Virus record (IMG/VR): IMGVR_UViG_3300020021_000004
Location: 22,249-86,248 of that record
Reading direction: 5' to 3' (one strand)
Origin: a virus
DNA: 64,000 nt
The notes under the pieces were generated by a model. It saw nothing but the letters and a program-made list of their open reading frames with translations. It was not told the origin of the DNA and made no database searches. Positions 12,452 to 31,566 of this stretch are shown piece by piece; position 1 is the stretch's first letter; the number at the start of each line of letters is the position of its first letter. Position numbers and translations under genes: made by a program.

Positions 12452-15400
12452 TCACTCCCACCCGTGCTTGATGACGCGGGGTGGCTGGAACTTCTCGACA
12501 GGAGCTGCGTCCTGAACCAAAAAGGGCTGCTCCACGAACTGAAGAGGGGAACCGTAGGTCTTTTGGATTTCCCAACGGATGAGCCACTGACCGGGCTGAC
12601 CCTGCTCACCCGCCAAACCCACCACATAGTATTCACCCACGCCAGGGCCCACCACTGCCTTCTTACGACCTCCGACCGGCATCGGGACCCCAGAGGCTGC
12701 GATCTGGAAGAACGTGTAATAGACCGCCACAGGGCTGTACATACCCTGTCGATCCGCGAGCCGGAGACACAGATCCCTTGCCGTGAGAGTTTGAAGGTAC
12801 CGGAAGGTCTTGGAAGGTCCGACGGGGGTCGGCTTGGGCTGAACCCCGTTGTTGTACACACGTACGATGCAGTCGTCGAAGATCTGCACCGCTTCTGCGG
12901 GAAGGCGGGTGTAGTTGACCTGAACGAAGAGGGCGTCCGAAACACCCATCACGTCCGAAACTGTCCGGCTCTGCTCCTTGTCGACTAGGAGTAGATCCGT
13001 CAGATCGAGGCTGTCGATGACCCTGCGGATGTAGTCGGTCGAAGCCTGAAGCTGATCGGCAACAACCAGAGCGTCCGACAGGTCAATGAAGATCGCGAGC
13101 CCGGCCGCTACGTCATCTGTGACGCTGACCGTGTCCTGGACGGTCGCATCCTTCTCGGTAGAGAGAGTGATCGAGTCCGTGACACTGACGGTGTCTTGGC
13201 CTGCACGAATGTAATCGGTCGAAGCTTGGAACTGCTCGGTGACGACCAGAGCGTCCGAGGCCGACCGGACGTAGCTAACGATCTTCGAGAAACTATCGGT
13301 GATGTCGATCGCGTCTTGGACAGCAACCCCGCGTTCAGCAAAGATCTGAACTTCGTCCGTAACATCAACGACGTCTTGTACGGTTCGAACGTAGTCGGTC
13401 GAAGCCCTGAGGGTCTCGGTAATGCTGATCGTGTCCGTAAGATTACGGGCGTACTCAGCCACCAGAACCGCCTGGTCCGTAACACTGATGGCATCCGAAA
13501 CCGTCTTGCGGACTTCAATCGAAATGGCGTCCGTGACCGACACAATGTCGGAAGCCGTGCGGACGTACTGGCTCGAAGAAGAGAGCTGATCCGCTAGAAC
13601 CAGGGCATCCTGGAGCCTGCGGATGTAGTCGGTGTTCGGAGAGAGCTGCTCAACGACCGTGATCGTGTCGGACCCTGAGCGGCTCAGCTCTCGAGTAACC
13701 GCTACACTGTCGGTAACCGAGGCACTATCGGACGCCGCCCGCTCGTAGGTGAAGCTCGTGGCGGCACTGTCGGCAACAGCAACAGCGTCCGAAGCCGTCT
13801 TCGAGTATTGGGTGGACGGAGATAGCTGGTCCGTGATGCTAACAGCGTCAGTGACCAGGACAGAAAGACCCTGGAAAAGGTCGACCGTCAAAGTCTCGGT
13901 GACGCTGATGGTGTCGCTAACGGCACGGGCTATTTCGAACGAAGCACTCGCGGTGTCGGTGATGCTGACCGAATCCGAAAGGGTGCGGTTGTAGACCGAG
14001 CTGATCGATGTCTGGTCAGTGACCGAGACGATGTCCGAAAGGGTGCGGCCGTACTCCGCCGCCAAGGTAAGGGTGTCGGTGACGCTGGTTGCGTCAGCCA
14101 GCGTCTTGTCGACTTCGACAGAGAGGGCGTCCGTAACGCTGATGGCATCGCTGACGGTGCGGACCTTCTCCAGGCCCGCAAACACCGCTTCTGTGGTGCT
14201 GAAGGTGTCCGAAAGGGTGCGAGAGAAATCTCCATTGAGGGACGTCTGGTCAGTGACCGAGACCGTATCGGAGACGTTCTTGTGAACCTCAATAGAGGTT
14301 GCGTCGGTAACGACGATCGTGTCGTTGACGGCACGCGACACCTCGAAAGAGGCATTAGCGGTGTCAGAGGTGCTGACAGCGTCCGAGCCCGTACGGGCGT
14401 ATACCGTCGATAGTGTCGTCTGGTCGGTGACCGAAAGAGTGTCGGAAGCCGACCGGTCCTTGTCCTGGCTCGGGATGTCAGTGTCGGTGACCGAGATCGT
14501 GTCACTGAGGCTCTTGGAGAACTCCAGGGATGTGACACTTTGGTCAGTAACGCTGACGGCGTCGCTGACGGTGCGGACCTTCTCCAAGCCCGCGGAGAGG
14601 GTTTCGGTGACCGCTATGCTGTCGGAGAACGAACGCCCGTACTCTACCGAAAGAGCGGTGCTGTCGGTGACGCTGACGCTGTCATTGACTTCCGTCTCTT
14701 GTTCGGTAGAAGCCTCGTCGGTAACGCTGACCGTATCACTGAGGGTGCGGTTGTACTGTGCCGCCAACAGCAGTTGGTCGGTGACCGAAATGGCGTCCTG
14801 CGGGAACGCTTTCTCGATAAGGGCCTGATCGGTAGCCGAGAGGACATCCGAAAGGGTGCGAGAGAACTCGACGGAGCTAACCGTGGAATCTGTGACGCTG
14901 ATGGCGTCTGACCTGAAGACTTCCTCATCCAGGACCTGGTCGGTGATGCTGACCGTGTCCGAGAGGGTGCGAGAGAAATCTGCCGAACGGCTCGTGCTGT
15001 CGGTGAGCGAGACGACATCGACCCCGAAGATGGTCTCGACCAACAACTGGTCGCTGACCGTGACCGAGTCCGAAAGGGCGATGTCGTTGTTGGCGGTCTC
15101 CGACTCATCAGTGGTGCTGATGGTGTCCGCAGCACTTCTGGAAATTTCAAGCGAAAGAGTCGTGCTGTCGGTGACAGAAACAGCATCGTTGACCGTGACG
15201 GCTTCGAACGCACTGGTCGTCGCGTCCGACTCATCCGTGGTGCTGACGGTGTCCGAAAGAGTGCGGCTGTACTGGGCCGCCAACGTGAGAGTGTCGCTGA
15301 CGCTGACGGCATCCTGTGGGAACGCCTTCTCAGTCAGGGTCTGGTCAGTGGCCGAGATCGCATCACTGAGTGTGCGAGAGAACTCGACGGAACTGAAGGC

Positions 15401-18400
15401 GGAGTCCGTGGCACTGATAGCATCTTGGGGGAAGCTGGTCTCAAGGGTCGCCTGATCCGTAACGCTGATCGAATCGGTGAGCGTTCGACCATACACCGAA
15501 GCCAAGGTGGTTTGGTCGGTGACCGAAACGGCGTCCTGCGGGAAGCTGGTCTCACGGAAGAGCTGGTCCGTAGCCGAGACCGAGTCACTAGCAGACCGGC
15601 TGTACTGAATCGAAAGGGCGGTGCTGTCGGCGACCGAAACAGCGTCTTGGACGAACAGGGTTTCGATCAACAACTGGTCGGTGATCGAGATCGAATCGCT
15701 GAAGGTGCGGCTGTACTGTGCCGAAAGGGCGGTGCTGTCCGTAACGCTGACGGCGTCTTGGGGGAAGCTGGTCTCACGGAAGGTCTGATCAGTGATTGCT
15801 ACGCTATCGGAAACTGACCTACTGTACTGAATCGAAAGGGTTGTGCTATCGGTGACCGAAACGGCGTCCTGCGGGAAGGCCGTCTCACGAAGTGTCTGGT
15901 CCGTAGCCGAGACCGAGTCCGCAAGGGTCCGACCATATTCAGCTGAAGTGCTGGTGTTGTCGGTGACCGAGACCGTATCCGAAGGGAAGCTGGTCTCACG
16001 AAGGATTTGGTCCGTGACCGCCAAGGTGTCGGAGGCGGACCGAACGTAGGACGTCTCAGCAGTAAGCTGATCCGTGACAACCACGATGTCGTTAGCAAAC
16101 GCATCCAGGACTGCGTTGGTGGTGGCTTCAATGTCGTCAGTAAGGGTGATCGAGTCACTGAGAGTGATCGAATACTGTGCCGAAAGGGTCGTGCTGTCGG
16201 TGACCGAGACCGTGTCCGACCCGCTCCTACCGTACTCAGCCGAGGTGCTGGTGCTGTCGGCGGAGCTGACGCTGTCTTGAGGGAAGCTGGTCTCACGGAG
16301 GGTTTGATCCGTGACGGTGATCGAGTCGCTGAGCGACCGTCCGAACACAAATGAAGTGCTCGTCGTATCAGTGACGCTGACCGCATCCTGAACGAAACCC
16401 GTTTCGATCGTTGTTTGATCGGTGAACGTTACGCTGTCGCTGAGCGACCTGCTGTACTGGATCGAAAGGGTCGTCTGATCCGTGACACTGAAGGCGTCTT
16501 GCGGAAAGACGGTGTCGACCAGCTTCTGGTCAGTGACACTGACGTTGTCCGAGAGCGTGATCGAGTACTGAAGGGACGTCGTAGCGGTATCGGTGACGCT
16601 GACGCTGTCCTGACGGAAAACACTGTCGACCAACAACTGGTCGCTGACCGTGACCGAGTCCGCAAGCGTGCGGCCATACTCCACCGAGGTCTTGATCGTA
16701 TCGCTGACGCTAACAGCGTCTTGGGGGAAGCTGGTCTCACGAAGCGTCTGATCAGTGACCGAAACTGCGTCCGAAATGGTGCGGTTGTACTGTGCCGAAA
16801 GGGTGATGCTGTCTGTAACGCTGACAGCATCTTGGGGGAAGCTGGTCTCACGAAGCGTCTGATCAGTGACCGCTACGCTGTCGCTGAGCGACCGGCTGTA
16901 CTGGGCCGAAACAAGGGTCGAATCCGTAACGTCGATCGCATCAACGTTGAAAGTGGTCTCGACCAACAACTGGTCGCTGACCGTGACCGAATCACTTAGC
17001 GACCTAGAGAAATCTAGGGAGGCGGTGATCGAATCCGTGACAGCTGCGCTATCCGAAAGCGTCTTAGCGTACTCTAGGGACGTTGACGGGCTGTCGGTGA
17101 CCGAGACCGCGTCCGAGAGGCTGACGTCGGTGATGCGGCCTGTGGTGGCCGACACATCATCGGCAACCGAAAGACTGTCCGAAAGGCTGCGGCCGTACTC
17201 GACCGAAAGAGTTGAACTGTCGGTAACGCTGACGGCATCTTGGGGGAAGCTGGTCTCACGGAAGGTCTGATCCGCGAGGGTGATCGAATCACTGAGAGTG
17301 ATCGAGTACTGTGCCGAAAGGGTCGTGCTGTCGGTGACCGAAACAGCGTCTTGGACGAACAGGGTCTCGACCAACAACTGGTCGCTGACCGCTACACTGT
17401 CGCTAAGAGTGCGGTTGTACTGTGCCGAAAGAGTGGTGCTGTCTGTAGTCGAGACGGCGTCCTGCGGGAAGCTGGTCTCACGAAGGGTCTGGTCAGTGAC
17501 CGCCAGGGTGTCGCTGAGAGACCGGCTGTACTGAATCGAAAGGGTTGTGCTATCGGTGACCGAAACGACGTCCTGCGGGAAGCTAGTCTCGCGGAGGGTC
17601 TGGTCAGTGGCCGCTACACTGTCGCTGAGAGTGCGGTTGTAAGCGAAGGCTGTCGTCGTCGAATCCGTGACATCGATCGCATCAACGTTAAAAGTGGTCT
17701 CGATCAGCGTCTGATCAGTGACCGCTACGCTGTCATTGATCGACCGGCTGTACTGGATCGAAAGAGTCGTCGAATCCGTGACACTGGCGCTGTCCGAAAG
17801 GCTTCGATCAACAGTGATCGCCAACTGGTCGGTGACGCTCGCAGTGTCACTGAGGGTGCGGTCGTATTGGGCCGAAGTTGCGATCGAATCCGCGACCGCT
17901 ACGCTGTCCGACAGAGTACGAGCGTAAACCGTCGAGGCTGAGGTGCTGTCAGTGACGTCGGCCGCATCCGAAACACTGACGTCGGTTGCCGAGGCCAGGC
18001 TATCGGTGACGGTGATCGTGTCCGAGAGGCTGATGCTGTACGAGAGCGAAAGGCTGGTCTGGTCAGTGACCGAAATCGTCTCAGCCGGAGAAATGAGGTC
18101 GAAGTCACCCGATGTCGCGACGCTGATGCTATCGCTGAGAGACCTGGAGTACTGGATCGAGGTGCTGGTCTGGTCAGTAACGCTGACGCTGTCCTGACGG
18201 AAGACCGTTTCGACCAACAGCTGATCGCTGACCGCTATGCTGTCGCTGAGGGTGCGGTTGTACTGTGCCGAAAGGGTCGTACTATCTGTAGTCGAGACCG
18301 TGTCCTGCGGGAAGCTGGTCTCGCGGAGGATCTGATCCGTGACCGCTACGCTGTCACTGAGAGACCTGCTGTACTGGACGGACAGCGTGGTGCTGTCCGT

Positions 18401-19114
18401 GACATCGATCGCATCGATGTTGAAGCTAGTCTCGACCAACAGCTGATCAGTAATGGCTACGGTGTCACTGATCGACCTGGAGAAGGTCAGGCTCGGAGCC
18501 GCCGAATCGGTGACCGCTGCGGTATCGCTGAGGGTGATCGAGTACTGAAGGGACAGCTGAGTGCTGTCCGTGATCGAGGGTGCATCAGAGACACTGATGT
18601 CTGCGATCTGGCCCGCAGCAATCGTTAGATCCTCGGTGATGGTTACCGAGTCGCTGAGGGTGCGGTTGTACTGAGCTGAAGTGCTGGAGCTGTCGGTGAC
18701 GCTGACCGCATCCTGAGGAAAGGTCGTCTCACGCAGCGTCTGATCAGTAACCGCTACAGTGTTACTGAGAGTCCGACCATAGACCCAAGAAAGGGTCGTG
18801 CTGTCGGTGACCGAGATCGTGTCCGAGACCGACACGTCGATCGCCGACGGGTGTAGAATCTCGATGACATCACTGTCGGTGATCGAGATTTGATCGCGGG
18901 TGAACTCTTCCAGCAGAGCGCTGCTGGTGACCGCTACAGTATCGGAGAGAACTAGGCTGTAGACCGCAGCAGTGCGGACGCTGTCACTGATGCTGACATC
19001 ATCGTCGGTGATCTCCGCAAAGCCCGACGTTGATACTGAGATAGTATCCGAGACTTTGATGTCGAGTCGGCTCGCACCATTTGCGAAGAGCAGGAAGGAG
19101 CCAAGACCGGCCAT
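12452..19114 (-). CDS. Giant repetitive fibre/backbone protein (2220 aa) with C-terminal Ig-like anchor domain
   Basis: About 2060 aa of D-x-V-x-V-T-D repeats. The last ~120 aa are non-repetitive and align to the N-terminus of 11517..12416. Confidence 0.8.
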   Translation of the reverse strand: MAGLGSFLLFANGASRLDIKVSDTISVSTSGFAEITDDDVSISDSVRTAAVYSLVLSDTVAVTSSALLEEFTRDQISITDSDVIEILHPSAIDVSVSDTISVTDSTTLSWVYGRTLSNTVAVTDQTLRETTFPQDAVSVTDSSSTSAQYNRTLSDSVTITEDLTIAAGQIADISVSDAPSITDSTQLSLQYSITLSDTAAVTDSAAPSLTFSRSISDTVAITDQLLVETSFNIDAIDVTDSTTLSVQYSRSLSDSVAVTDQILRETSFPQDTVSTTDSTTLSAQYNRTLSDSIAVSDQLLVETVFRQDSVSVTDQTSTSIQYSRSLSDSISVATSGDFDLISPAETISVTDQTSLSLSYSISLSDTITVTDSLASATDVSVSDAADVTDSTSASTVYARTLSDSVAVADSIATSAQYDRTLSDTASVTDQLAITVDRSLSDSASVTDSTTLSIQYSRSINDSVAVTDQTLIETTFNVDAIDVTDSTTTAFAYNRTLSDSVAATDQTLRETSFPQDVVSVTDSTTLSIQYSRSLSDTLAVTDQTLRETSFPQDAVSTTDSTTLSAQYNRTLSDSVAVSDQLLVETLFVQDAVSVTDSTTLSAQYSITLSDSITLADQTFRETSFPQDAVSVTDSSTLSVEYGRSLSDSLSVADDVSATTGRITDVSLSDAVSVTDSPSTSLEYAKTLSDSAAVTDSITASLDFSRSLSDSVTVSDQLLVETTFNVDAIDVTDSTLVSAQYSRSLSDSVAVTDQTLRETSFPQDAVSVTDSITLSAQYNRTISDAVSVTDQTLRETSFPQDAVSVSDTIKTSVEYGRTLADSVTVSDQLLVDSVFRQDSVSVTDTATTSLQYSITLSDNVSVTDQKLVDTVFPQDAFSVTDQTTLSIQYSRSLSDSVTFTDQTTIETGFVQDAVSVTDTTSTSFVFGRSLSDSITVTDQTLRETSFPQDSVSSADSTSTSAEYGRSGSDTVSVTDSTTLSAQYSITLSDSITLTDDIEATTNAVLDAFANDIVVVTDQLTAETSYVRSASDTLAVTDQILRETSFPSDTVSVTDNTSTSAEYGRTLADSVSATDQTLRETAFPQDAVSVTDSTTLSIQYSRSVSDSVAITDQTFRETSFPQDAVSVTDSTALSAQYSRTFSDSISITDQLLIETLFVQDAVSVADSTALSIQYSRSASDSVSATDQLFRETSFPQDAVSVTDQTTLASVYGRTLTDSISVTDQATLETSFPQDAISATDSAFSSVEFSRTLSDAISATDQTLTEKAFPQDAVSVSDTLTLAAQYSRTLSDTVSTTDESDATTSAFEAVTVNDAVSVTDSTTLSLEISRSAADTISTTDESETANNDIALSDSVTVSDQLLVETIFGVDVVSLTDSTSRSADFSRTLSDTVSITDQVLDEEVFRSDAISVTDSTVSSVEFSRTLSDVLSATDQALIEKAFPQDAISVTDQLLLAAQYNRTLSDTVSVTDEASTEQETEVNDSVSVTDSTALSVEYGRSFSDSIAVTETLSAGLEKVRTVSDAVSVTDQSVTSLEFSKSLSDTISVTDTDIPSQDKDRSASDTLSVTDQTTLSTVYARTGSDAVSTSDTANASFEVSRAVNDTIVVTDATSIEVHKNVSDTVSVTDQTSLNGDFSRTLSDTFSTTEAVFAGLEKVRTVSDAISVTDALSVEVDKTLADATSVTDTLTLAAEYGRTLSDIVSVTDQTSISSVYNRTLSDSVSITDTASASFEIARAVSDTISVTETLTVDLFQGLSVLVTDAVSITDQLSPSTQYSKTASDAVAVADSAATSFTYERAASDSASVTDSVAVTRELSRSGSDTITVVEQLSPNTDYIRRLQDALVLADQLSSSSQYVRTASDIVSVTDAISIEVRKTVSDAISVTDQAVLVAEYARNLTDTISITETLRASTDYVRTVQDVVDVTDEVQIFAERGVAVQDAIDITDSFSKIVSYVRSASDALVVTEQFQASTDYIRAGQDTVSVTDSITLSTEKDATVQDTVSVTDDVAAGLAIFIDLSDALVVADQLQASTDYIRRVIDSLDLTDLLLVDKEQSRTVSDVMGVSDALFVQVNYTRLPAEAVQIFDDCIVRVYNNGVQPKPTPVGPSKTFRYLQTLTARDLCLRLADRQGMYSPVAVYYTFFQIAASGVPMPVGGRKKAVVGPGVGEYYVVGLAGEQGQPGQWLIRWEIQKTYGSPLQFVEQPFLVQDAAPVEKFQPPRVIKHGWE
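12880..19060 (-). repeat. Coding tandem repeat array, units of 17-20 aa, often forming a 37-aa (111-bp) super-repeat
   Basis: Example unit SDSVAVTDQTLRETSFPQ-DAVSVTDSTTLSAQYNRTL. gaagctggtctc recurs at 15431 and 15542, 111 bp apart. Over 100 units, estimated from length. Confidence 0.9.
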
Positions 19115-19215: not shown

Positions 19216-19473
19216 TTACTGAGTGAACGCCGTGACCTGGTAGTACTGACTTGAGGTCAAGTTGTTGAAGATGGGCTTGATATCCGCGTCCAAGTCAAAG
19301 GCTTCAGTCAATTTGATCCAAAGCAGGGGTTCCGTAGTGATGTTCAGAAGGACTTCGGAAACATTTCCGTTGTAATCCAACGTGTACATGAGCACAGGAA
19401 TTTCGTAACCACCCGCATCTAAAGCAGAGAGCAAGGACGTAGCTTGAGCAGCGTTAACCACAACCTTGATCAT
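19216..19473 (-). CDS. Hypothetical protein (85 aa)
   Basis: ATGA-coupled to 19470..20105. Confidence 0.6.
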   Translation of the reverse strand: MIKVVVNAAQATSLLSALDAGGYEIPVLMYTLDYNGNVSEVLLNITTEPLLWIKLTEAFDLDADIKPIFNNLTSSQYYQVTAFTQ

Positions 19474-20105
19474 ACCGGAACCTCTTCCCAGGTCATCCCG
19501 AAGATGGCCAACGGAGTGGTGCCCGCAGCAGCAATTCCCTGCAAGGAGAGGCAGTTACCGGGCAGCACGATGAACTTGCCATCCGTACGATCCACCATCG
19601 GAGGACCTGGGGCGACAGCGCCACCTGCGAAAGCATTCAAGGTGAACACAGGACGGAGGATGGCTGAGGTAGCGGCTACAGTCGAGCCAGTGAAGATCAA
19701 GCCTTGACCCTGCGTTGGAGACCCAATGCGATTGCTCCTAGGGGTGAGCTGTGTACCACCAGTCGGGTTGGCATTCGTGGTCTGAGGGTTCCAAGCAAGT
19801 ACGACCGTGCCTGCACCCCAGGTACCCGACACATAACCCATGCTGATATCGATCAGCACCAAATTGACAGGAGATCCAATCGGGTTGTAGAGGGTGAAGG
19901 GCGGAGCCGTACCCAACGCAGTACCGGGCGCCACGCCAGCTGCGGCGTTAGTCCCTGAGTAAATGTTGCCGCGGTAGTTGGTCTCGTAGTAGCTGCCATG
20001 GGCATCGGCAACTGCGGTTGACCCATCCTTGAGGAGACGGGGATCCTGAAGAGTGCCGTCCTGAGCAACCACTACGCCAACACGGCCTTGAATTTCGATA
20101 GCCAT
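19470..20105 (-). CDS. Putative fibre-associated beta-sandwich protein, tandem paralogue A
   Basis: Close paralogue of 20137..20775 (MAIEIQGRVG...GMxWEEVPV). Confidence 0.7.
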   Translation of the reverse strand: MAIEIQGRVGVVVAQDGTLQDPRLLKDGSTAVADAHGSYYETNYRGNIYSGTNAAAGVAPGTALGTAPPFTLYNPIGSPVNLVLIDISMGYVSGTWGAGTVVLAWNPQTTNANPTGGTQLTPRSNRIGSPTQGQGLIFTGSTVAATSAILRPVFTLNAFAGGAVAPGPPMVDRTDGKFIVLPGNCLSLQGIAAAGTTPLAIFGMTWEEVPV

Positions 20106-20136
20106 TTTTACTTCTTCCCTTTAGAGACTTTGAAAA

Positions 20137-20775
20137 TCAGACCGGAACTTCTTCCCAGACCATGCCCAGGAGGATTAGAGGGGCAGTGCCCGCGGCACCC
20201 ACGCCTTGAATCGAAAGGCAGTTGCCGGGCAGCACAAGGAACTTGGCGTCCGAGATATCCATGACTGGAGGGAAAGGGACACCTGCGGTGGATGCCTGAG
20301 CAATCCCTACCGAAAGGAACGGGCGAAGGATCGATTGAGTGGCGGCGACGGTAGAAGCCGTGAAAGCCAAACCCTGACCCTGCGTCGGGGACCCTACGCG
20401 GCAGCTTCTAGGAGTGAGCTGAGTACCGCCGGTCGGGTTGGCGTTCGTGGTCTGAGGGTTCCAAGCAAAGACAAGGGCTACAATACCGAACAAACCCGAG
20501 ACGTACCCGAAAGAAGCCTCAAGGACTGACAAATTGACGGGAGAGCCCGCGGGATTGTAGAGGGTGAAGGGCGGGGCGGTGCCGAGAGCTGTACCGGGAG
20601 CCACGCCAGCTGCGGCAATAGATGCGCAATAGACGTTGCCGCGGTAGTTGGTCTCATAGTACTTGGAGTGAGCATCCGACACCGCCGTCGAGGCATCCTT
20701 CAGAAGGCGGGGATCCTGCAACGTGCCGTCTTGTGCGACGATCGGGCCAACACGACCTTGAATTTCGATAGCCAT
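20137..20775 (-). CDS. Putative fibre-associated beta-sandwich protein, tandem paralogue B
   Basis: Close paralogue of 19470..20105. Confidence 0.7.
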   Translation of the reverse strand: MAIEIQGRVGPIVAQDGTLQDPRLLKDASTAVSDAHSKYYETNYRGNVYCASIAAAGVAPGTALGTAPPFTLYNPAGSPVNLSVLEASFGYVSGLFGIVALVFAWNPQTTNANPTGGTQLTPRSCRVGSPTQGQGLAFTASTVAATQSILRPFLSVGIAQASTAGVPFPPVMDISDAKFLVLPGNCLSIQGVGAAGTAPLILLGMVWEEVPV

Positions 20776-20784
20776 TTTGCTTCC

Positions 20785-21429
20785 TTACGCAGAACCCAAG
20801 GGTCCCTGATTGTTGCTAGAGCCGAAGGCGTTGCTGAGGATCAGGATCAACTGATCCAACTGGGCGGAGATCACATCAAGCCGGCCCATGAGGGCCAGAT
20901 CCGCCACAAGAACAGTTCCGTCGGTCCTCGTGTAGACCGTGCTAGTAATGTTTCCTGCATCCGACCCCGCCATAACGTTGGCCAAAGAAGGTTGCGGCCC
21001 GCCTTCAGCGGCGTTCGAGGCCAGTACCTGACGGCCCGAGGTGTCGGTGAGCAGCGTCCTGACTAGCTTGCCGTCCGAGCCCGCTATCAAAGATGGGGCA
21101 GCAGTCGGGTTGAGGGCGGTTCCGCTCAAGACGGGGCCCACCACCACCTGACGGTTGTAAGCATCCAACGCCAGAGCTTGGCTCAGGTTCTGGCTGACCT
21201 GCATGGTCCCCAGGGTCAGCTGGTCGAGCACCGCCTGAAAAGCCTGCCTAAGTTCGTCTATGCCCGCCCCACCGACGGGGAACGGGTTGCTGTTGCTGAC
21301 GTCCCCAAAGTCGTTGTCCTGGTGCCCAAGACGGATCTTACTGACCGGGATCTTGGCTCCAGTGCCGGGATCCTCCGTCATGATGGTGTCGCCGCCGACA
21401 CCTGGGTTCAGGACTGTGTTGTCAGCCAT
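20785..21429 (-). CDS. Putative fibre/shaft protein
   Basis: MADNTVLNPGVGGDTI start; short beta-repeats (AGSDG..VRTLLTDTSGRQ / AGSDAG..TVYTRTDG) plus short coiled coils. Confidence 0.55.
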   Translation of the reverse strand: MADNTVLNPGVGGDTIMTEDPGTGAKIPVSKIRLGHQDNDFGDVSNSNPFPVGGAGIDELRQAFQAVLDQLTLGTMQVSQNLSQALALDAYNRQVVVGPVLSGTALNPTAAPSLIAGSDGKLVRTLLTDTSGRQVLASNAAEGGPQPSLANVMAGSDAGNITSTVYTRTDGTVLVADLALMGRLDVISAQLDQLILILSNAFGSSNNQGPLGSA

Positions 21430-23754: not shown

Positions 23755-23757
23755 CGT

Positions 23758-25824
23758 TCAATCCAAAAAGGTATGGGACTTGTAGGAGAACCGAAGGTAC
23801 ACGGTGGAGCTTGTTTCAGTATCCGTAATAGCTGGGGTGTCGGTCCCCGCATCCACGTCGTAGAGGGTCCCTGAAGATGCAGGGGCTAACGCGATATGGA
23901 ACCCTACGACGCCGAACCCTGTTGCGGGTCTTGCGAAGGTACCTGTAGCCGACGGAACCACAGCCGCTGTCCCCTGTCCGTTGTCCGCAACGCAAATGAT
24001 GTCCCAACCGCTCGTGTCAGCGAACGCTACACGTTCGACGTATCCCGAAGGTGGTACGAAATCAACGGTCGTGGGGGTGGAGGTTCCCGGATCTGCAACC
24101 CCCACCCAAACGATCTGACATCCGTTAGCTGTAGTGGTCAGGGTGGGGGCTATGACGCTAGCGGGAGTCGCACGGTCATCGTCATGTGTTTCTGAGACAG
24201 GCGTCACTTGAAGAGGCGTCGTAGGGTGAACGCCAGACCACGCGGAGATCACGAGCCCTTGGTTCAAGGTGATGCCAGGAGTGAAGATATAGCTCCCGCT
24301 CCCGACTGCCGATTTCTTGTACCAAACGTAGTAAGTGGCTCCATCAGTGATCGTCAACGAGGCATTGAAGATCTGTGTCCACGTCCCATCGGGCGGGCTG
24401 CATGTCTGTCCGCCGCCGTCACATTCCCAAACTGCTAGGAGGAAGTCCCCTGCCTGCCCAGGGTCCACTGCACTGATGGTGGCCCCGCTCAAAGAGCTAG
24501 CGGTCGAGGACGCTCGATAATTAATGGTCGCAGGATTCAGGGCCGCCATGATGACGATCCACGTATCGGCACCCCCCGTGCTCGTCACATAGTTGCCAGT
24601 CGAACCAGAGCTAACTAGGGCACCATCGTAGTAGCCTGAAAACCCGCTGTCGAGATTCAGAAACGAGGTGCCGTCCACTCTGGAAATAAGAGATCCCGCA
24701 CTCCCTGAAGGAGCAGCCGTCAAAGCATTGTCGTCCCCAAACCATCCGTAAACCAAGTATTCTTTGGCTTTGGCAGCTGAGAACCCTGTGCCGGTAACGG
24801 TTGAGTTGGCACCCCCACTGTTGTTGACCGAAAAATTATCAAACGGAGTCGTGTTGTTGACGCCCGAATAGGCACAGATGATAACGTCGATGTTGCCCGC
24901 CGTACCCGTGGCGGTAAATGTGTAGCTGGAAGACTCTGACGCCCCCGCTACTTTGTACATCATCGCGCAATTGAGGTCTGACCCGCCAGGTCCGCCGCGC
25001 TCTGAAGTCGCGGCCAGAACAGTCCACCCTGTAGACGCCCACAAGCTGACGAAAGCAGAGTTGTAGTTACCTAACCACGCAACCAAGACATCGCCCGCAA
25101 CAACCTCCGTAGGTTTGTTGCACACGCCACTTGAAGCCGAGACAGTGGCGGCACCGCGGATCTCGATCCGCGAGACCAACATATTGGGCTCGTCGGTGCT
25201 GATCGTTAGCGTTGTGCCCGTGACGGTCCAGTTCTGAGCCGCCGCCGACTGGTCATGCCCGATCGTGTGTCCCGCATCGCACTGAAGATAGTTGGTCAAC
25301 CCAGTGGTGACGATCGGAGCATTCTGCTGGCTCTCAGCAAAGATCTGGTCAGGCGTTAACGCCGCAGACGTCGACCACTCCTTGTAGGCCGTGAATCGCT
25401 TATGATTGGTGGACCCACCCCCTGTTCCAACTAAAAAGAACTGATTGACAGTACTAATGTTCGTGTCTGAAACATTAGATGTGTGGAGGAAATTCTCACC
25501 CTCATGACGCCAGTAGGCGGTGACACCAACGCCGTTCACGGCGACCGTGCACACGAAAATCCACGTTGAGTCAGAACCCGTGCTAACGATTTGTAGATTG
25601 CCCCCCTGAGTGTTCACACAGGTGTCGGTGATAACAGGGATACCGCTGCCTGCGATGTCACCGATGCTGTACGACCAGTCGTCCCCGTTACCTACCGCGT
25701 ACAGGGCAGGATCCCCACCATCAACGAACTCGAAGTACCTCACCCAAAAACAAGAGGTGACGCCAAGTGTGCCAGAATTCCGATTAAGTTCGGTGTTGCC
25801 TCCAGAGGTGGTTTCGTAGCTCAT
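23758..25824 (-). CDS. LamG-like plus two beta-domains protein with C-terminal backbone-type repeat
   Basis: Same N-terminal domain, then two GD-x-L-x-A...W...K.A...Y.FT domains. Tail YDVDAGTDTPAITD. Confidence 0.65.
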   Translation of the reverse strand: MSYETTSGGNTELNRNSGTLGVTSCFWVRYFEFVDGGDPALYAVGNGDDWSYSIGDIAGSGIPVITDTCVNTQGGNLQIVSTGSDSTWIFVCTVAVNGVGVTAYWRHEGENFLHTSNVSDTNISTVNQFFLVGTGGGSTNHKRFTAYKEWSTSAALTPDQIFAESQQNAPIVTTGLTNYLQCDAGHTIGHDQSAAAQNWTVTGTTLTISTDEPNMLVSRIEIRGAATVSASSGVCNKPTEVVAGDVLVAWLGNYNSAFVSLWASTGWTVLAATSERGGPGGSDLNCAMMYKVAGASESSSYTFTATGTAGNIDVIICAYSGVNNTTPFDNFSVNNSGGANSTVTGTGFSAAKAKEYLVYGWFGDDNALTAAPSGSAGSLISRVDGTSFLNLDSGFSGYYDGALVSSGSTGNYVTSTGGADTWIVIMAALNPATINYRASSTASSLSGATISAVDPGQAGDFLLAVWECDGGGQTCSPPDGTWTQIFNASLTITDGATYYVWYKKSAVGSGSYIFTPGITLNQGLVISAWSGVHPTTPLQVTPVSETHDDDRATPASVIAPTLTTTANGCQIVWVGVADPGTSTPTTVDFVPPSGYVERVAFADTSGWDIICVADNGQGTAAVVPSATGTFARPATGFGVVGFHIALAPASSGTLYDVDAGTDTPAITDTETSSTVYLRFSYKSHTFLD
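23821..23871. repeat. 51-bp direct repeat, copy 1 (copy 2 at 25949-25999)
   Basis: 49/51 identical; encodes GTLYDVDAGTDTPA(I/V)TD. Confidence 0.85.
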
Positions 25825-25873
25825 AGGTCCCGATCCGCGTAGGCTCCTCTACCTCTGAGGTGTCAAAAGAAAC

Positions 25874-26701
25874 TTAGTCGAGGAAAGGTCCTGTTTTACC
25901 GGGCAGGAAGATATCGAAGGAGGGCCTATTGGTTCCCGCAGTGATCGAATCCGTAACAGCTGGGGTGTCGGTCCCCGCATCCACATCGTAGAGGGTCCCC
26001 GCTGTGATTGTAGGAATCGACAACACCCACGCCATCACTCCACCAGCATCGGCCCCCGTCAACGGCGTGGACGTGATGTTCAGGGTAATGGTGCCCGTAG
26101 GACTCCCCGTAGCGGGAGCATCCATCGACAGCATGGCCAAAGAGCTGTACTCAGCAGTGCCTCCTGCGGCTCCTGACAACACGGCCCTCTGAGTAAACCC
26201 TGTGGCCGAGAACGTGAAGTCCTTGGAATTGTCGACAGCATCCAACGCGACGAAAATGAAGACCTGATCGCCGCTCGCTGTATTACAGCCGTTCAATGAA
26301 GCGGTCGTGTTGGTGACGTGATTTGTACCTAAGTTAGTGTGCTGAACGTCCGTGATCGTGGTGTCGTCCAACCCTGCCCACGTGAACAGAAGCAAGACCG
26401 TGGACGGGAAGGACTGCGAACTCGTCGTGAACGAATAGGTGCTGGGCAGGCCCGACGCCGGAGTACCGGCCCCACCGTTGCCCGTGTATTTGAAAATGCC
26501 TGCACTATTGTTGTCGAAACTACAGGTCTGGTAGCTATCAACAAGGGTGAAGTCACTTGGGATCGTCAGAGGGACGTTGACCTCGTCCGCGTTGTAGAAC
26601 GCCCACAGGCGGTCTCCCAAGGCATATGTAGGCGTAGTCCCTGTAACGGTGAGGGTCCCTCCTGCGTTGGGATCTATGGTGGCGTCCCTAAACCCCGTCA
26701 T
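25874..26701 (-). CDS. Single beta-domain protein with C-terminal backbone-type repeat
   Basis: GDRLWAFY...YSFTT domain like those in 23758..25824. Tail YDVDAGTDTPAVTD. Confidence 0.65.
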   Translation of the reverse strand: MTGFRDATIDPNAGGTLTVTGTTPTYALGDRLWAFYNADEVNVPLTIPSDFTLVDSYQTCSFDNNSAGIFKYTGNGGAGTPASGLPSTYSFTTSSQSFPSTVLLLFTWAGLDDTTITDVQHTNLGTNHVTNTTASLNGCNTASGDQVFIFVALDAVDNSKDFTFSATGFTQRAVLSGAAGGTAEYSSLAMLSMDAPATGSPTGTITLNITSTPLTGADAGGVMAWVLSIPTITAGTLYDVDAGTDTPAVTDSITAGTNRPSFDIFLPGKTGPFLD

Positions 26702-26816: not shown

Positions 26817-27827
26817 TTAGCTAGCGTTCTGTAGCCGCCGACGGGCCTCTAGGTGCACTTCCATGAAGGAGACGCCGAATCGGTCACGGAGCCACTCGAT
26901 CATGACCGCCTCTTCGACCGAATGCTGACCGTTGTGACACTTCACACACAACCTTTCCAGGTTGGCGGGGTTGTTGTTCCAAGGGTTGCGATCCTTGTGG
27001 TTGATGTGCTTCCCGACCTCCCTGCACACCACACACGGACCTGGGGCTACGAGACGGCGGGCACGACCGTACATAACCTGTGACGTAACGGCATCACCTG
27101 TAACCCTCGGGCGTCCTCGGCCATCCGTGAAACCCTTGCCCACCAGGTCTGGAGATAACTCGACCCGCTTGATCCCAAGTCGATCTAAAGCCTGTTGAAC
27201 AGTTCTCGCAGCACACCCCGCCATTCGACCAACTTCAGCCTTAGACTTCCATTGGGTCACGTACTGCTCGGTCAACCACTCCTTGTTATGAAGGGTCTCT
27301 AGGAACTTAGCCCTAGGACGAGGAGCGTTGGACCCGTACTTGCGAAGTACACTGTGAGCCCGTGTGGCACTTTCACTACGTTTCGCAGGGTCGGATTCGT
27401 AGGTAGCGTGACCCGTGTGTGTCTCTACGGCTCGCTGTTTTTGAAGACAACCGCACGACTTAGCGCCACCCGTCTTTAGCGCTTGAGCGCTAATCGCCTT
27501 CTCATTGCCGCAATCGCAATGGCACCACCACCAAGCGGACCTCGTGGTCTGTTCCGTCAGCTCCCGAGTTAAGGGTGCTTCGGACCGTCGTAACACTTCC
27601 AAGCGACCAAACCGTTGGCCCGTGAGATCCTCTGCTTGACCTATCAAGCAGCCACAGGACTTCGTATGGCCAGACCTAAGCAAGGACCCTCGAACGATGT
27701 GCTCGGGCTTACCGCACGCTGAACAAAAGCAAACCCACCGAGCCTCTCCGCCCGGTGGGTACGCCGCTTCTCGAATCACCGTCAACGAACCGAATACCTG
27801 CCCAGTTAGGTCGATTTTCCTGCTCAT
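26817..27827 (-). CDS. HNH homing endonuclease with two DLTGQxFGxL / WxCxCxCG / SCGC repeats
   Basis: C-terminal CVVC...HINHKDRNPWNNNPANLERLCVKCHNGQH; inserted inside the fibre locus. Confidence 0.8.
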   Translation of the reverse strand: MSRKIDLTGQVFGSLTVIREAAYPPGGEARWVCFCSACGKPEHIVRGSLLRSGHTKSCGCLIGQAEDLTGQRFGRLEVLRRSEAPLTRELTEQTTRSAWWWCHCDCGNEKAISAQALKTGGAKSCGCLQKQRAVETHTGHATYESDPAKRSESATRAHSVLRKYGSNAPRPRAKFLETLHNKEWLTEQYVTQWKSKAEVGRMAGCAARTVQQALDRLGIKRVELSPDLVGKGFTDGRGRPRVTGDAVTSQVMYGRARRLVAPGPCVVCREVGKHINHKDRNPWNNNPANLERLCVKCHNGQHSVEEAVMIEWLRDRFGVSFMEVHLEARRRLQNAS

Positions 27828-27833
27828 TTCCAG

Positions 27834-27862: not shown

Positions 27863-27875
27863 CAGTCCGATAACT

Positions 27876-28382
27876 TCAGGTTACGCGAGCCCTGTAGGTT
27901 ATTCGTAGCTTGTCTGCCGTGGTCTTGTTGACGGCCGTGAAAGTGCTGCGGCTCAACGCACTGCCACCCGGCGACGTGTGCTGGTTCATGACCACCACTT
28001 CGCGGATGTTGGTAGCCGACTTGGTGCCGCCGCCCGACTGATACGACACCACCCACTGGAAGGTACGAGTACCCGACAGAAGGGTGATGGTGTCAGCAGT
28101 GCGGAGCGTGCCCGTCACGGGGCTGACCACGTTGGTCTGTGCAGAGTTCGCCGCAACACCGGACGTACCGATGCGGAGGAACTTGAACAGACTCGTGTTC
28201 AGACCAGTGGCTTTGCGCCAGATCTGCTTCTTGCCGGTGTTGACCACCAGGTTGGGGATTGTACGACGTTGCACAACCTCAGGACCGTTCTTCCCGTCTC
28301 GGAGCACCTCGACGACGAAAACGCCCTGGGCTTGCAGCTCGTCAGACAGCCCCTGCTCGTTCTGAATGTCCTTGGCCTGCAT
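27876..28382 (-). CDS. Small tail-collar-fibre-like beta-sandwich subunit (168 aa)
   Basis: ATG 28382 with GGAG RBS. NLVVNTG...IGT...IREV...SRSTFTAVNKT...LRITY resembles the collar-fibre N-terminal fold as a stand-alone protein. Confidence 0.6.
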   Translation of the reverse strand: MQAKDIQNEQGLSDELQAQGVFVVEVLRDGKNGPEVVQRRTIPNLVVNTGKKQIWRKATGLNTSLFKFLRIGTSGVAANSAQTNVVSPVTGTLRTADTITLLSGTRTFQWVVSYQSGGGTKSATNIREVVVMNQHTSPGGSALSRSTFTAVNKTTADKLRITYRARVT

Positions 28383-30198
28383 TGCTAATTGACTCCTCCA
28401 ACAGTGAGATGTTGGTTTTGGCTTCCTCAAACACGTCGGATTCGGCGTTGTCTGGAAGCAGCTCCAGCACCTTACGCGCCCAATAAAGAGAATCTTCGAA
28501 CCGACCCAACTCTCCGTGAACCATGGCCAGCCGTTGTGCTGGGATCCATGAGTACATGGGGAGGTCCACCCACCACAGGGTGAAGGGCGGCTCTCCAACT
28601 TTAGTCCCCGCATAAGTATACCATTGGAGGGCCTCTTCGAACTTGTCCTCCCGGAACGCCAAGTCCCCTAGCCGAACCCAATGTTCAGTCCGGCTCCAAT
28701 CGTCCCCGACCGCCCCTAAAAGGATGTCTCGAGCGCTGATCCAATCAGCCGCTTTCTGCTCTTCCGTTCGAGGTGGGGTAGTGGGATCCGAAGCCCTTTG
28801 GCTGTACAGCTTCGAGAGGATGAGGCGCGTGTGGTACCGCATGGGCCCGTTCTTCTTTGGGACCCTCAGGTACTCTTCCAACCGTTCGATCGCCTTATCG
28901 TTCGAGTGTTCACGCCATTCTGAGCCCAAATAGTGGAGCGACATGGCGTTGCCGTTGTGGACCCAGTCGTCCATCAACGTCACACGGTTCTGAGTCTTTC
29001 TCTGAACGTGACGAGCCATTTCACGGTCGATAGCTCGCTCGTGAAGGGTGCGGACCTGCGGCAGGTTGATGGCGTAGGTGCCGGTCGGGTAGTCCAGAAT
29101 GTTGTGCGTCTGACGGGCGTACCGGATGCGCGAGTCTTGTTTGCACAGCCAAGGGAAAGCCCACTGCTGATCGTTGCCCGTACGGAGGACGAATCCAAGC
29201 TTCGTCTGCGGGGGCATCTGGTCCAGCGAAAGCAGGGCTTCCCACCCTGAAACCAACCGCTCATGGCCCTCCGTCATGAAGATCCACTCTGAAGTGCACT
29301 TGTCCATGCACTGGTTGCGGATCCACCCGAAATGAACTCCACCCTCAGGGGTTTCGTCACCCTTGGGGCCTTCAGGGTCCTTCAAAAAGAACACCACTTC
29401 AGCGTACTTTTCGGCAATTTCCCAGGTGTTGTCGGTCGTCCGAGGATCGACACCAATGACGATTTCATCCGCCACCGCTCGGAAACTTGCAAGGGTGGCC
29501 TCGAGGTCCGCCCCCTCATCACGACAAGGCATCGTCACCGACAGGGTGAAGCCTTTTTCCCAACCGCAAACCCCCAAAAGGTACGGTCCAAGCACTTCGA
29601 TCCGTACGTGTTCGAAGTGCTGTTGCAAGTCCCTCTTGAAGGACATGGCGTTGTACTTCACCGTGTGCTGGGGCTCTTCATCAGGTCCCAAGCGATCGTT
29701 GGGTACCGAGAACAAGGCTCGCCCACGCTTGGCAGCGTGCTTGAACAACCGATGGCGGGTCTCCGCACTCAGGTGCTCGACCACCTCAGTGGCGATGCAA
29801 ACATCCAAGGGACGATCGAGAACTCGATCGAGGTCCGCATCGCTCTCCAAATCGGCGATGGCGGTCTCGAGTCCTAGTTCTCGCGCCTTCTCGAGAGCGG
29901 CCTCGCTGTGGTCCACCACAAGAGGCTCGACCTTCTTGGTGACCTTCAGACGCTCAGCCAAGATACCGGTGCCACCCCCAAGATCGACGATCTTGGACCC
30001 CGGGGTGAGAATGCGCTCGATGCGAGTGTAGACCTGGCTCAGAGCCTGCTTTCGCCACTCCTCTTGCCCCTCTTCCTTCCAGAGGCGATTCCAAAGGTCG
30101 GGGCTATTGGCAAGACGTGCTTGCCGCTCAGCTGCCTCTTCTTCTTTGGTCTTGGTCTTAGCTTCGTCGACTAGTTCCACAGCCTGAGTAGCTTCCAT
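28342..30198 (-). CDS. Class I SAM methyltransferase / GT2 glycosyltransferase / TPR fusion
   Basis: IVDLGGGTG...TEVVEHL (MTase); LSVTMPCRDE...ADEIVIGVD..TTDNTWEIA...FGWIRN (GT-A); C-terminal TPR-like helices. Confidence 0.8.
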   Translation of the reverse strand: MEATQAVELVDEAKTKTKEEEAAERQARLANSPDLWNRLWKEEGQEEWRKQALSQVYTRIERILTPGSKIVDLGGGTGILAERLKVTKKVEPLVVDHSEAALEKARELGLETAIADLESDADLDRVLDRPLDVCIATEVVEHLSAETRHRLFKHAAKRGRALFSVPNDRLGPDEEPQHTVKYNAMSFKRDLQQHFEHVRIEVLGPYLLGVCGWEKGFTLSVTMPCRDEGADLEATLASFRAVADEIVIGVDPRTTDNTWEIAEKYAEVVFFLKDPEGPKGDETPEGGVHFGWIRNQCMDKCTSEWIFMTEGHERLVSGWEALLSLDQMPPQTKLGFVLRTGNDQQWAFPWLCKQDSRIRYARQTHNILDYPTGTYAINLPQVRTLHERAIDREMARHVQRKTQNRVTLMDDWVHNGNAMSLHYLGSEWREHSNDKAIERLEEYLRVPKKNGPMRYHTRLILSKLYSQRASDPTTPPRTEEQKAADWISARDILLGAVGDDWSRTEHWVRLGDLAFREDKFEEALQWYTYAGTKVGEPPFTLWWVDLPMYSWIPAQRLAMVHGELGRFEDSLYWARKVLELLPDNAESDVFEEAKTNISLLEESISNAGQGHSERAGAV

Positions 30199-30226
30199 TC
30201 ATTTCCTCTGATTTCTGGGTTTTCAT

Positions 30227-30775
30227 TTAGCCTCCCTGTTTACGGGGAGGATTGGGATCCACAACAAAGTGTTCGGTCTGTACTGGGGCCGTCTTGGGCA
30301 GCACCTGTGCACGAGCGGGCATGCCCGCAGGAATGACAGCGACCTGCTTCTTCAACAACACCGCCCGTAGGTCCGCCGACCCATCCAGGGTAGCCATCAA
30401 GATCGAGTCGGTGCCCTTCCACGTGTGGATCGTGTCAGCCGTCCCCACGAGGTCCGAGAGTGCTTTGGCATACGACGTCTGAAGACTCACCTGATCAGCC
30501 GCCGCCATGCTGTCACCGAGCGTCGCCCAGCGTACGAAACCCGTAGAGGCTACGTCACTCGCGGCTACCGCATCCGAAACCGCGATCCCAAAGCCCTTCG
30601 AGATCAAGATGCTGTCGCTGATGTTGACGGTGTCGGTGTTGAAGGATGTCTCCACGAACATGGAGTCCCCCATCACGATGAGGTCTTGGAGGCTGTATTG
30701 GTACGACATCGCCAAGGCAATGGCATCCGCAGAGACCGAGAAGGAGTCGTTGACGACCGTGTCCAATAGAGCCAT
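30227..30775 (-). CDS. Short paralogue of the repeat backbone protein
   Basis: FVETSFNTDTVNISDS, VSDAVAASD and YAKALSDLVGTAD match the repeat units of the giant protein. Confidence 0.7.
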   Translation of the reverse strand: MALLDTVVNDSFSVSADAIALAMSYQYSLQDLIVMGDSMFVETSFNTDTVNISDSILISKGFGIAVSDAVAASDVASTGFVRWATLGDSMAAADQVSLQTSYAKALSDLVGTADTIHTWKGTDSILMATLDGSADLRAVLLKKQVAVIPAGMPARAQVLPKTAPVQTEHFVVDPNPPRKQGG

Positions 30776-30787
30776 AGCGCGCCTCCT

Positions 30788-31174
30788 TTAGGTGCAGAAA
30801 CCCGCCGTCAAGCCAGACTCGACAGCAAGGGGAAGGTTCACGACATCGAAGTCGATCCCGACGATTTGAGACGTCCCAGGATAGTTGATCAGCAGGTTCC
30901 AATGCCCAAGAGAGTTGGGAAAGAACCGAAGGCCATAGCCCTGATTGGGCAGCGCATCCCAGTAGACGGAGCCCGACACCACTTGGGCATCTGACACCAC
31001 CGAGCCGTCGAGAAGGGGCCACGCCACGACGGTGTTGTTCAGGAACAACGTCAACGTCACGTCAGCGGGCACCACTCCAGCAATTCGGGTGTACTGGTTG
31101 GCCGAAAAGAGGTCCACCTGATCGTAGATCAGCTGGTTGATCTGCACTAAGCGCGTTCGAAAAGTGGCCGCCAT
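30788..31174 (-). CDS. Small Ig-like structural protein
   Basis: GYGLRFFPNSLGHWNLLI is an Ig/YtkA-like strand pattern; located in the fibre locus. Confidence 0.55.
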   Translation of the reverse strand: MAATFRTRLVQINQLIYDQVDLFSANQYTRIAGVVPADVTLTLFLNNTVVAWPLLDGSVVSDAQVVSGSVYWDALPNQGYGLRFFPNSLGHWNLLINYPGTSQIVGIDFDVVNLPLAVESGLTAGFCT

Positions 31175-31179
31175 GAGGC

Positions 31180-31566
31180 TCAGCTTTCCGTGATCGAGAA
31201 GTACCCGATTGGGAAAAAGAGGGCGTCCTCCGCATACACGGTCTTCGGCGTCCCCAAGGTACCGAAGTACAGCATGTTGCCTGCCGTCAAGGCGTCGAAC
31301 ACCGCTACTCCAGGGACGTCACCCCAATCCAGCGTCGGGGTTGGGTAAGTGATGACGTTGGTGTTGTGGCTCTCGCCCGCCGAAGACGCAGAGAACACTG
31401 CTGCTCGGCGTATGTAGGACCCACCCGTCACTTCAGTGCCGCCGCCGGCACTCGTGGGCGTCACGTTGAATAACGCGACGTACCAGGCGGACGGAGGCGT
31501 GAACGTCACACCCCGAAGGACGTGGTTCGCCAAAGCGTTTCGCAGGTAGTCGGTTTTGTTCATCAT
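31180..31566 (-). CDS. Small phage fibre subunit (YVALF..P...G.EV.G..Y.R family)
   Basis: YVALFNVTPTSAGGGTEVTGGSYIR...WG.V..VAVFDALTAGNMLYFG is a recurrent phage minor tail/fibre family motif. Confidence 0.65.
   Translation of the reverse strand: MMNKTDYLRNALANHVLRGVTFTPPSAWYVALFNVTPTSAGGGTEVTGGSYIRRAAVFSASSAGESHNTNVITYPTPTLDWGDVPGVAVFDALTAGNMLYFGTLGTPKTVYAEDALFFPIGYFSITES

Follow-up and report, generated by a model that had tools for sequence, protein, structure and literature searches.

What would a phage build with a protein of 2220 amino acids (aa) that is almost entirely an array of D-x-V-x-V-T-D units, when the same locus encodes globular proteins ending in copies of that unit and small proteins proposed as fibre subunits? 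The question is posed by IMG/VR virus record IMGVR_UViG_3300020021_000004, of which we analysed 64,000 nucleotides (nt), bases 22249–86248 of the 86,248-base record; this whole stretch is referred to below as the window. The DNA was found in soil metagenomes, the phage is uncultured, and CheckV puts the completeness of the source record at 18 %. A protein collection search found three neighbours of the 2220-aa protein (hereafter the giant) in identical form on a contig of 404,268 bases, and the phage is therefore regarded as a jumbo phage. The fibre locus lies wholly on the minus strand, as do most other genes of the window (Table 1). A first-pass annotation had read the repeat as a docking β-strand and proposed that two small subunits, here called bead A and bead B, polymerize along the giant and that lectin-like heads plug in through their own copy of the strand. 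Our sequence comparisons suggest that the locus of this jumbo myophage probably codes for a fibre system of the rope-and-bead (chain-like) kind, in which the giant would be the rope.

To our knowledge, fibres of this design are represented by only a handful of structures determined by electron cryomicroscopy, with 2 to 11 bead dimers per rope; fibre I of the Ralstonia podophage GP4 (PDB 8JOU) is reportedly the subject of a paper by Zheng et al. in J Mol Biol in 2023. Passages of two papers describe chain-like fibres as dimers of small proteins threaded on a ‘rope’, the strands of which complete the incomplete sandwiches of the beads (PMC12609058, PMC13730344). As far as these passages tell, two whisker dimers wrap the N-terminal rope of the neck collar protein in phage Bas63 (PMC12609058), GP4 carries five dimers on a separate rope protein (cited through PMC12609058 and PMC13730344) and, in phage A1002, 11 dimers of two bead proteins, spanning ~300 Å, augment the sheet with the fibre-dock of the nozzle protein gp39 (PMC13730344). 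We found that the FelixO1 homologue of the Bas63 collar protein, recognized by Cys52, Cys69 and Cys90, adjoins the whisker gene and begins with ~48 residues of short alternating strands, and that the FelixO1 homologue of the Bas63 whisker falls into phrog_240 (6e-29), the same PHROG as bead A. The statement of the first-pass annotation that no such appendage had been described is therefore wrong, GP4 (2023), Bas63 (2025) and A1002 (2026) being examples; its picture of a pilus-like, strand-complemented appendage rather than a trimeric fibre agrees in kind, by analogy, with the architecture solved for these three. Taken as a whole, its interpretation is borne out in part.

The array of the giant was confirmed in detail. 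A loose regular expression found 104 units, with spacings of 20 aa (61), 17 aa (26), 18 aa (6) and 22 aa (4) and six single odd spacings; the strict form D.[VILA].[VILA]TD is present 69 times, and a hidden Markov model (HMM) of the unit gave 101 domain matches. Residues ~98–1460 form a 37-aa super-repeat of alternating 20- and 17-aa units, visible in the DNA as a 111-nt period with 67–83 % matches, and residues ~1478–2075 consist of plain 20-aa units. The protein begins straight with repeats, without a head domain, its units are rich in Ser, Thr and Asp, and its final ~140 aa are non-repetitive. The motif D.[VILAM].[VILAM][TS]D occurs in 5 of the 386 open reading frames (ORFs) of at least 60 aa in the 86-kb record: 78 copies lie in the giant, two in a 182-aa protein (the short rope), two in a 266-aa head protein, and one each in an ORF antisense to the giant and in one further ORF. 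A unit of 17–20 aa is close to the length of rope that we derive for each bead monomer of FelixO1/Bas63 and of A1002, ~12–15 aa. The giant matched no Pfam family and no PDB sequence at E≤1, and comparison with known fibre-shaft repeat families and solved fibres (Pfam, PDB, PHROG) gave no match to a classical trimeric tail fibre or β-helix shaft; among PHROGs it found only phrog_12240, of unknown function, and, in part, phrog_321. Related arrays are present in 1125 protein clusters at E≤1e-3 (277 at E≤1e-10), in proteins of ~450–3900 aa, many of which consist of a globular head followed by a long array. As the unit HMM is narrow and missed arrays of the P0007 type, it was complemented by the regular expression and inspection by eye. 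A tblastn search of 50,697 phage records gave no match for the C-terminus of the giant and none for two array fragments, in the latter case possibly because of the BLAST low-complexity filter, and a search for related loci with a single protein found no relatives of the array fragment or of the anchor domain described below.

An assembly artefact or a non-coding repeat can be ruled out as the source of the array by the open frame of 6.6 kb, the divergence of the copies and the plentiful homologues; copies that match to this limited extent are old and not the product of assembly stutter. Short contigs from one soil sample (runs X1 and X2; probably the source) matched the window exactly and tiled 29–30 of 30 bins, stretches uncovered in run X3 not being counted as evidence. 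These short contigs tile the gene of the giant, but none spans the array, and two repeat-type joints were seen. The exact 2220-aa sequence was not found in a collection of 15 billion proteins; the number of units therefore depends on a single assembly. In the assembly behind the 404,268-base contig, the called start or the repeat number of the giant may differ.

The link to known fibres is carried by bead A. This protein matched PF23140 (‘Podophage GP4 fiber I protein gp80’) with an E value of 2e-40 and 138.5 bits against a cut-off of 27, phrog_240 with 8.4e-25 and chain a of PDB 8JOU with 2e-10, and it has 395 homologues. By sequence it is a bona fide bead of the gp80/whisker family, so that its earlier designation as a small fibre subunit is borne out. 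The presence of the repeat in the short rope, claimed in the same annotation, was likewise verified: 6–7 degenerate units, without the conserved Thr, extend over residues ~9–125 of 182 (HMM E 0.0038). The short-rope gene is one gene away from bead A, and homologous short ropes of 143–295 aa occupy the same position in sister phages; neither tblastn against the phage records nor a PDB sequence search gave a match for the short rope. Among the ten related loci found with bead A, those designated L005, L007 and L008/L011 share the gene order bead A, 129-aa protein, short repeat protein, methyltransferase–glycosyltransferase–tetratricopeptide-repeat (MTase-GT2-TPR) enzyme and 182/183-aa protein; in L006 and L009/L010 the genes for bead A, the 129-aa protein and the short rope are present in a different order. 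In both GP4 and phage Itty13, the gene after the gp80 homologue encodes a low-complexity strand-repeat protein. In our view, bead A more likely serves the adjacent short rope. The 128-aa protein encoded between the two matched no Pfam or PHROG family and showed no BLASTP similarity to the anchor domain or to the 299-aa protein discussed next.

The non-repetitive C-terminal domain of the giant shares 34–55 % identity with the C-termini of four proteins, namely a 1378-aa repeat protein (L008), proteins of 268 aa (L009) and 274 aa (L006), and P0093. A search with an alignment of this domain (A1) returned 11 loci, of which ~8 are distinct and the contigs reach 529 kb; in all 11 a gp80-like gene lies no more than 10 kb upstream of the anchor-domain gene, and in L019, L020, L021 and L022/23 it abuts it. 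The 1378-aa orthologue, with ~60 units, shares the repeat type of the giant, and the short orthologues (149–284 aa) contain about six Gly/Ser/Leu-rich strand units of a kind unlike the giant's, resembling the repeat protein encoded after the gp80 homologue in GP4 and Itty13. By these alignments, the giant would be an expanded rope-plus-anchor protein. In a 452-kb contig (L048, 10610..11113) its orthologue has 167 aa, comprising the anchor domain with almost no repeats, and directly follows bead B; the family as a whole spans from roughly 0–2 to ~104 units. Sister phages with Gly-rich ropes (L009/L022 and L006/L024) have two canonical gp80-like genes, neither bead B nor a glycosyltransferase being seen in the gene maps of L006 and L009, and phages with the D-x-V-x-V-T-D type have, besides bead B and the enzyme, one gp80-like gene. 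It thus seems that a change in the flavour of the rope goes along with a change in the set of beads. The N-terminal part of the next gene product, a 299-aa neck/adaptor-like protein, is paralogous to the anchor domain (BLASTP E 2e-7). This protein matched connector phrog_17327 weakly (E 0.0048), and in 28 of the loci fetched a homologue of its gene stands behind that for the rope or array. In L028 the array gene is followed by a member of phrog_442, a head–tail adaptor family (E 2e-6), which need not be homologous to the 299-aa protein. Neither the anchor domain (profile A1) nor the 299-aa protein had a PDB sequence match. The anchor HMM was built from A1, which includes repeats of P0093, and its hits in the regions around phrog_5417 genes were repeat hits and were discarded.

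Bead B, the protein assigned to phrog_5417, is highly conserved: it has 400 homologues, the best 120 of which are 65–98 % identical to it. A longer ORF (27876..28613, minus strand) would start at an upstream ATG, give 245 aa and overlap the end of the MTase-GT2-TPR gene; since the homologues have 160–183 aa and a 98 %-identical protein of 168 aa is on record, the true start is probably at 28382. A search with the bead-B alignment (A6) yielded 51 loci, 30 close (at least 49 % identity) and 21 distant. Arrays were found within 10 kb of bead B in 20 of the 30 close loci (16 by HMM, 15 by regular expression, 20 in union) and by eye in three more, and in none of the 21 distant loci, whereas canonical gp80 was near bead B in only 4 of the 51. 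Among five viral records with P0007-like head-plus-array proteins, phrog_5417 was present in four, and it stood beside the array gene in the four regions fetched. The first-pass annotation had suggested a test of whether the repeat protein and the small subunits co-occur across phages; bead B does accompany arrays of this type, but canonical gp80, found in none of the five records, is not their universal partner. A distant bead-B-like gene in L086 and L093 has as its immediate neighbour a mini-rope of 116–132 aa with ~4 such units, and in L028 the phrog_5417 gene stands beside a glycosyltransferase gene, upstream of that for the head–tail adaptor; no array was found around the distant phrog_5417 matches in two complete jumbo genomes (G006, G009).

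As to what bead B is, hhalign comparison of the diverse alignments A7 and A8 gave an E value of 1.2e-4 over 90 columns at a probability of 54.6 %, and 8 of 25 bead-B family members matched PF23140 at E≤0.01 (best 5.7e-5). The five distant members considered all matched phrog_5417 and the N-terminus of tail-fibre phrog_4176, and two of them phrog_240. BLASTP gave no match between bead A and bead B, and the bead-B profile (A6) no PDB sequence match. Bead B thus appears from its sequence to be a remote relative, not a member, of the gp80 family PF23140, and its earlier description as a small fibre subunit stands in the form of this distant kinship and not in that of family membership. Provided that the rope-and-bead reading is correct, we think it rather probable that bead B is a second, divergent bead and a likelier partner of the D-x-V-x-V-T-D arrays than bead A. 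The MTase-GT2-TPR enzyme has homologues in 26 of the 30 close bead-B loci and in none of the 21 distant ones; in the seven loci inspected and in L028, its gene is the one immediately upstream of bead B. The GT2 match of the enzyme covers 85 of 168 profile positions.

The four C-terminal repeat strings quoted in the first-pass annotation are present in the globular proteins exactly as given. Each is, by eye, a complete unit of the 20-aa type; single HMM E values were 0.27 (275-aa protein), 1.1 (473-aa head), 8.8 (688-aa head) and 16 (266-aa head), all four matches being C-terminal, and three of the four miss the strict regular expression through a P or Q at position 3. As three of the tagged proteins are paralogous, with an N-terminal domain 42–46 % identical among them, the tags are not independent. 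In P0050 the same domain (30 % identical) is followed from the same point by ~17 units and in P0278 (47 % identical) by a long array of another flavour, and P0007 and P0008 have a larger head joined to ~40 units. Heads and arrays that are fused in relatives and split here (a ‘Rosetta-stone’ relationship) suggest that heads and rope probably join non-covalently. No related loci were found with the N-domain alignment (A4). The homologues of a 373-aa protein encoded upstream of bead A (L005 8394..9602; L007 8432..9601) end in a repeat-like unit that the window protein lacks, which suggests that different virion proteins acquire such tags and lose them again.

Several results weigh against the assignment of the locus to the rope-and-bead fibres. 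Similar 20-aa repeats are found in the cellular-looking giants P0034 and P0046, which have membrane segments and LVIVD-type repeats, so that the repeat may fold by itself. The narrow alignments A6 and A2 showed no relation in hhalign (probability 0.1 %), and the wider comparison of bead B with gp80 reaches just the value given above; bead B of the window itself matched no Pfam family, not reaching the gathering score of PF23140, and two of the 25 family members matched PF12571, so that bead B, given its tail-fibre N-terminal matches, could be a fibre stub. PF23140 and phrog_240 are missing from all five records with P0007-like proteins, one of which is a complete phage record of 113.8 kb, and 7 of the 30 close bead-B loci have no visible array (in L061 and L077, the sequence ends at most ~1 kb downstream). 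Taken singly, the four tags carry little statistical weight, and the tagged heads yielded a single homologue outside the phage. Finally, the rope gene of GP4 was not identified, P0004 not being in the PDB by sequence. Some of these points would fit an autonomous shaft, in which the repeats fold on themselves as a stack of β-hairpins, a solenoid or a trimer, the giant being a very long neck or whisker fibre and the small proteins separate parts or chaperones. The breadth of the repeat's distribution, its frequent fusion to globular heads, its cellular-looking carriers, its occurrence in phages without canonical gp80 and the likeness of bead B to tail-fibre N-terminal domains would all be in keeping with such a shaft. 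Against it stand the short, rope-like orthologues of the giant, near gp80-like genes in every locus found with the anchor domain, the pairing of arrays with the gp80-related bead B in 20–23 of the close loci and in none of the distant ones, and the failure of the giant to match any Pfam fibre or solenoid family or to find a relative in the PDB; moreover, a lone tag of one or two units on a globular protein would make little sense as a shaft. We therefore consider a self-folding shaft unlikely.

The rope-and-bead reading leaves room for a different distribution of beads, with bead A threaded on the giant and bead B acting as a cap, an adaptor or, for example, the target of the glycosyltransferase. 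Among the proteins of the locus, bead A alone has a proven family membership, and the rope gene with the anchor domain stands right beside a canonical gp80-like gene in sister phages. However, the sister ropes have a different, Gly-rich repeat, canonical gp80 is rare near bead B, and in the D-x-V-x-V-T-D records outside the jumbo lineage the array is accompanied by bead B in four of five cases and by canonical gp80 in none, which makes this arrangement distinctly improbable. It is also conceivable, if rather doubtful, that the array is mainly a Ser/Thr-rich substrate, a mucin-like fibre glycosylated and methylated by the MTase-GT2-TPR enzyme with bead B as cofactor or carrier, a notion compatible with the rope-and-bead reading. 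The composition of the units and the constancy of the enzyme gene in close bead-B loci, directly upstream of bead B where inspected, agree with it, but the GT2 match covers only about half of its profile and linkage does not tell whether the target would be rope, bead or a host molecule.

Under the rope-and-bead reading that we favour, the giant would be the rope, its ~104 extended strand units each completing the open β-sandwich of one bead subunit, with bead dimers lining up along it like beads on a string. At the neck, its C-terminal domain would serve as the anchor, next to the paralogous domain of the adjoining gene product, and the N-terminus would point outward. If that model holds, bead B would be expected, with better than even confidence, on the repeat of the giant and bead A on the adjacent short rope. 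We infer that the four globular heads, through their one or two rope units, could be joined to the head-less rope by way of the beads, the obvious glue being dimers that accept a strand of each. A probable task of the MTase-GT2-TPR enzyme would be to modify the bead or the Ser/Thr-rich rope. The family membership of bead A, the anatomy of the repeat, the orthology and the linkage of the genes come straight from the sequences; docking, stoichiometry, the site of anchoring, the plug-in of heads and the modification are inferences from them. More speculatively, and with clearly less confidence, we suggest that the whole forms a non-covalent kit, in which a rope of ~100 units threaded by bead B receives four lectin-like heads through their rope units as interchangeable receptor-binding modules, decorated by the enzyme, and that the module of bead B, array and enzyme, with its hundreds of relatives, represents an unrecognized, widespread class of virion appendage. 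In control genomes, PF23140, phrog_240 and phrog_5417 each gave a signal in Methanosarcina acetivorans, and phrog_5417 also in E. coli; rope-and-bead parts may exist on cell surfaces or in proviruses, and the module of bead B, array and enzyme might extend to archaeal cell surfaces.

Table 1. Positions in the window of the parts of the proposed fibre and of the genes around them
Feature	Position	Strand	Description
299-aa neck/adaptor-like protein	11517..12416	-	N-terminal ~105 aa paralogous to anchor domain of giant
Giant, whole ORF	12452..19114	-	2220-aa open frame
C-terminal domain of giant, proposed neck anchor	12452..12880	-	Non-repetitive; includes stop codon; defined by identity to orthologue C-termini
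Repeat array of giant, proposed rope with bead-docking strands	12881..19066	-	Residues ~17–2078; ~104 units of 20 or 17 aa
Four small ORFs	19216..21429	-	85, 211, 212 and 214 aa; between heads and giant
266-aa head	21507..22307	-	Shared N-domain with two repeat units immediately behind it; tag nt 21546..21665
473-aa head	22333..23754	-	Shared N-domain, further globular domain, one C-terminal unit; tag nt 22354..22434
688-aa head	23758..25824	-	Shared N-domain, two further globular domains, one C-terminal unit; tag nt 23785..23862; partial phrog_3329 match
275-aa globular protein	25874..26701	-	One C-terminal unit; tag nt 25916..25990
HNH homing endonuclease	26817..27827	-	phrog_374, E 6.8e-36; between tagged heads and bead B
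Bead B (putative)	27876..28382	-	168 aa, phrog_5417; remote relative of gp80/whisker beads and of tail-collar fibre N-terminal domain
MTase-GT2-TPR enzyme	28342..30198	-	Candidate bead or rope modifier; assigned by Pfam
Short rope (proposed)	30227..30775	-	182 aa; 6–7 degenerate units and C-terminal Pro-rich tail
Conserved partner between bead A and short rope	30788..31174	-	128 aa; homologues confined to the jumbo lineage among the fetched loci (23 loci)
Bead A	31180..31566	-	Canonical fibre subunit of GP4 gp80 family; PF23140, phrog_240, PDB 8JOU
Conserved protein upstream of bead A	31951..33072	-	373 aa; homologues in L005/L007

The remaining genes of the locus add little to this picture. 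Of the small ORFs between the heads and the giant, 19470..20105 and 20137..20775 (minus strand) encode adjacent, paralogous proteins of 211/212 aa; the five proteins tried matched no Pfam or PHROG family, and the sole match among the fetched loci is a 53-aa one in L059. An HNH-like gene is found elsewhere in L008, before bead A; the HNH genes are probably mobile insertions and that of the window is probably not part of the fibre.

The proposed system can be set beside each of the solved fibres. Bas63 (a Felixounavirus, with the same fibre in Sf14) is, like the phage studied here, a myophage. According to the passages available, one of its proteins joins a rope at the N-terminus to a globular collar domain at the C-terminus, located at the neck, which is the layout proposed here for the giant; its bead gene adjoins the rope gene (as seen in FelixO1), the beads belonging to phrog_240. 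Its rope has ~48 aa for two dimers, whereas the array described here has ~2060 aa and ~104 units; the second, divergent bead, the separately encoded tagged heads and the MTase-GT2-TPR enzyme also set the present locus apart from Bas63, as does an anchor domain that matches no PDB chain by sequence. GP4 resembles it in a rope encoded apart from the bead, a strand-repeat gene after the bead gene and the kinship of its gp80 with bead A, but is a podophage with five dimers per rope, as cited in the papers on Bas63 and A1002, and its rope repeat would be Gly-rich only if the unconfirmed P0004 is the rope; as far as the passages tell, neither tagged heads nor an enzyme are described for it. The Pseudomonas podophage A1002, in the passages describing it, has two bead proteins (147 and 171 aa, 16 % identical), as proposed here, adjacent bead and rope genes and docking by sheet augmentation; it differs in that the rope is part of the podophage nozzle protein and in having 11 dimers, the longest row known so far, against ~50 that we would expect for the giant. 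The likeness to A1002 is drawn from its description. Scaling from its ~300 Å for 11 dimers, a fibre on the giant would measure roughly 0.14–0.2 µm, with ~52 dimers at the lower value; the ~0.7 µm suggested earlier for the giant as a ruler applies to a fully extended chain and is an upper bound only.

A further comparison is with donor-strand complementation in chaperone–usher pili, where a second polypeptide supplies the strand that an Ig-like sandwich lacks. In such pili the donor is always the neighbouring subunit, whereas here one long chain would donate all the strands, so that the resemblance is one of analogy and not of family membership; membership was rejected because no usher or chaperone genes are present. 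In the literature searched, supplementary files being outside its scope, no paper on giant tandem-repeat ropes was found. What would be new with respect to known fibres, judged from sequence, is a rope about ten times longer than any described, a bead subfamily with its own repeat type, split-off tagged heads and a linked modifying enzyme.

If a rope of ~100 units is indeed made, this design of fibre could be scaled by an order of magnitude, and fibre length would be set by a simple and evolvable repeat count, a question for which the orthologues of 149 to 2220 aa provide a natural series. The association of the repeat with the 168-aa protein, which has 400 homologues, and with the MTase-GT2-TPR enzyme puts a name and a testable function to many unannotated phage genes, and the rope-and-bead design could serve as a scaffold in protein engineering. 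For the biology of soil jumbo phages, the tagged heads together with the head-less rope suggest that several receptor-binding modules may be carried on one appendage without covalent fusion, an arrangement that bears on host range.

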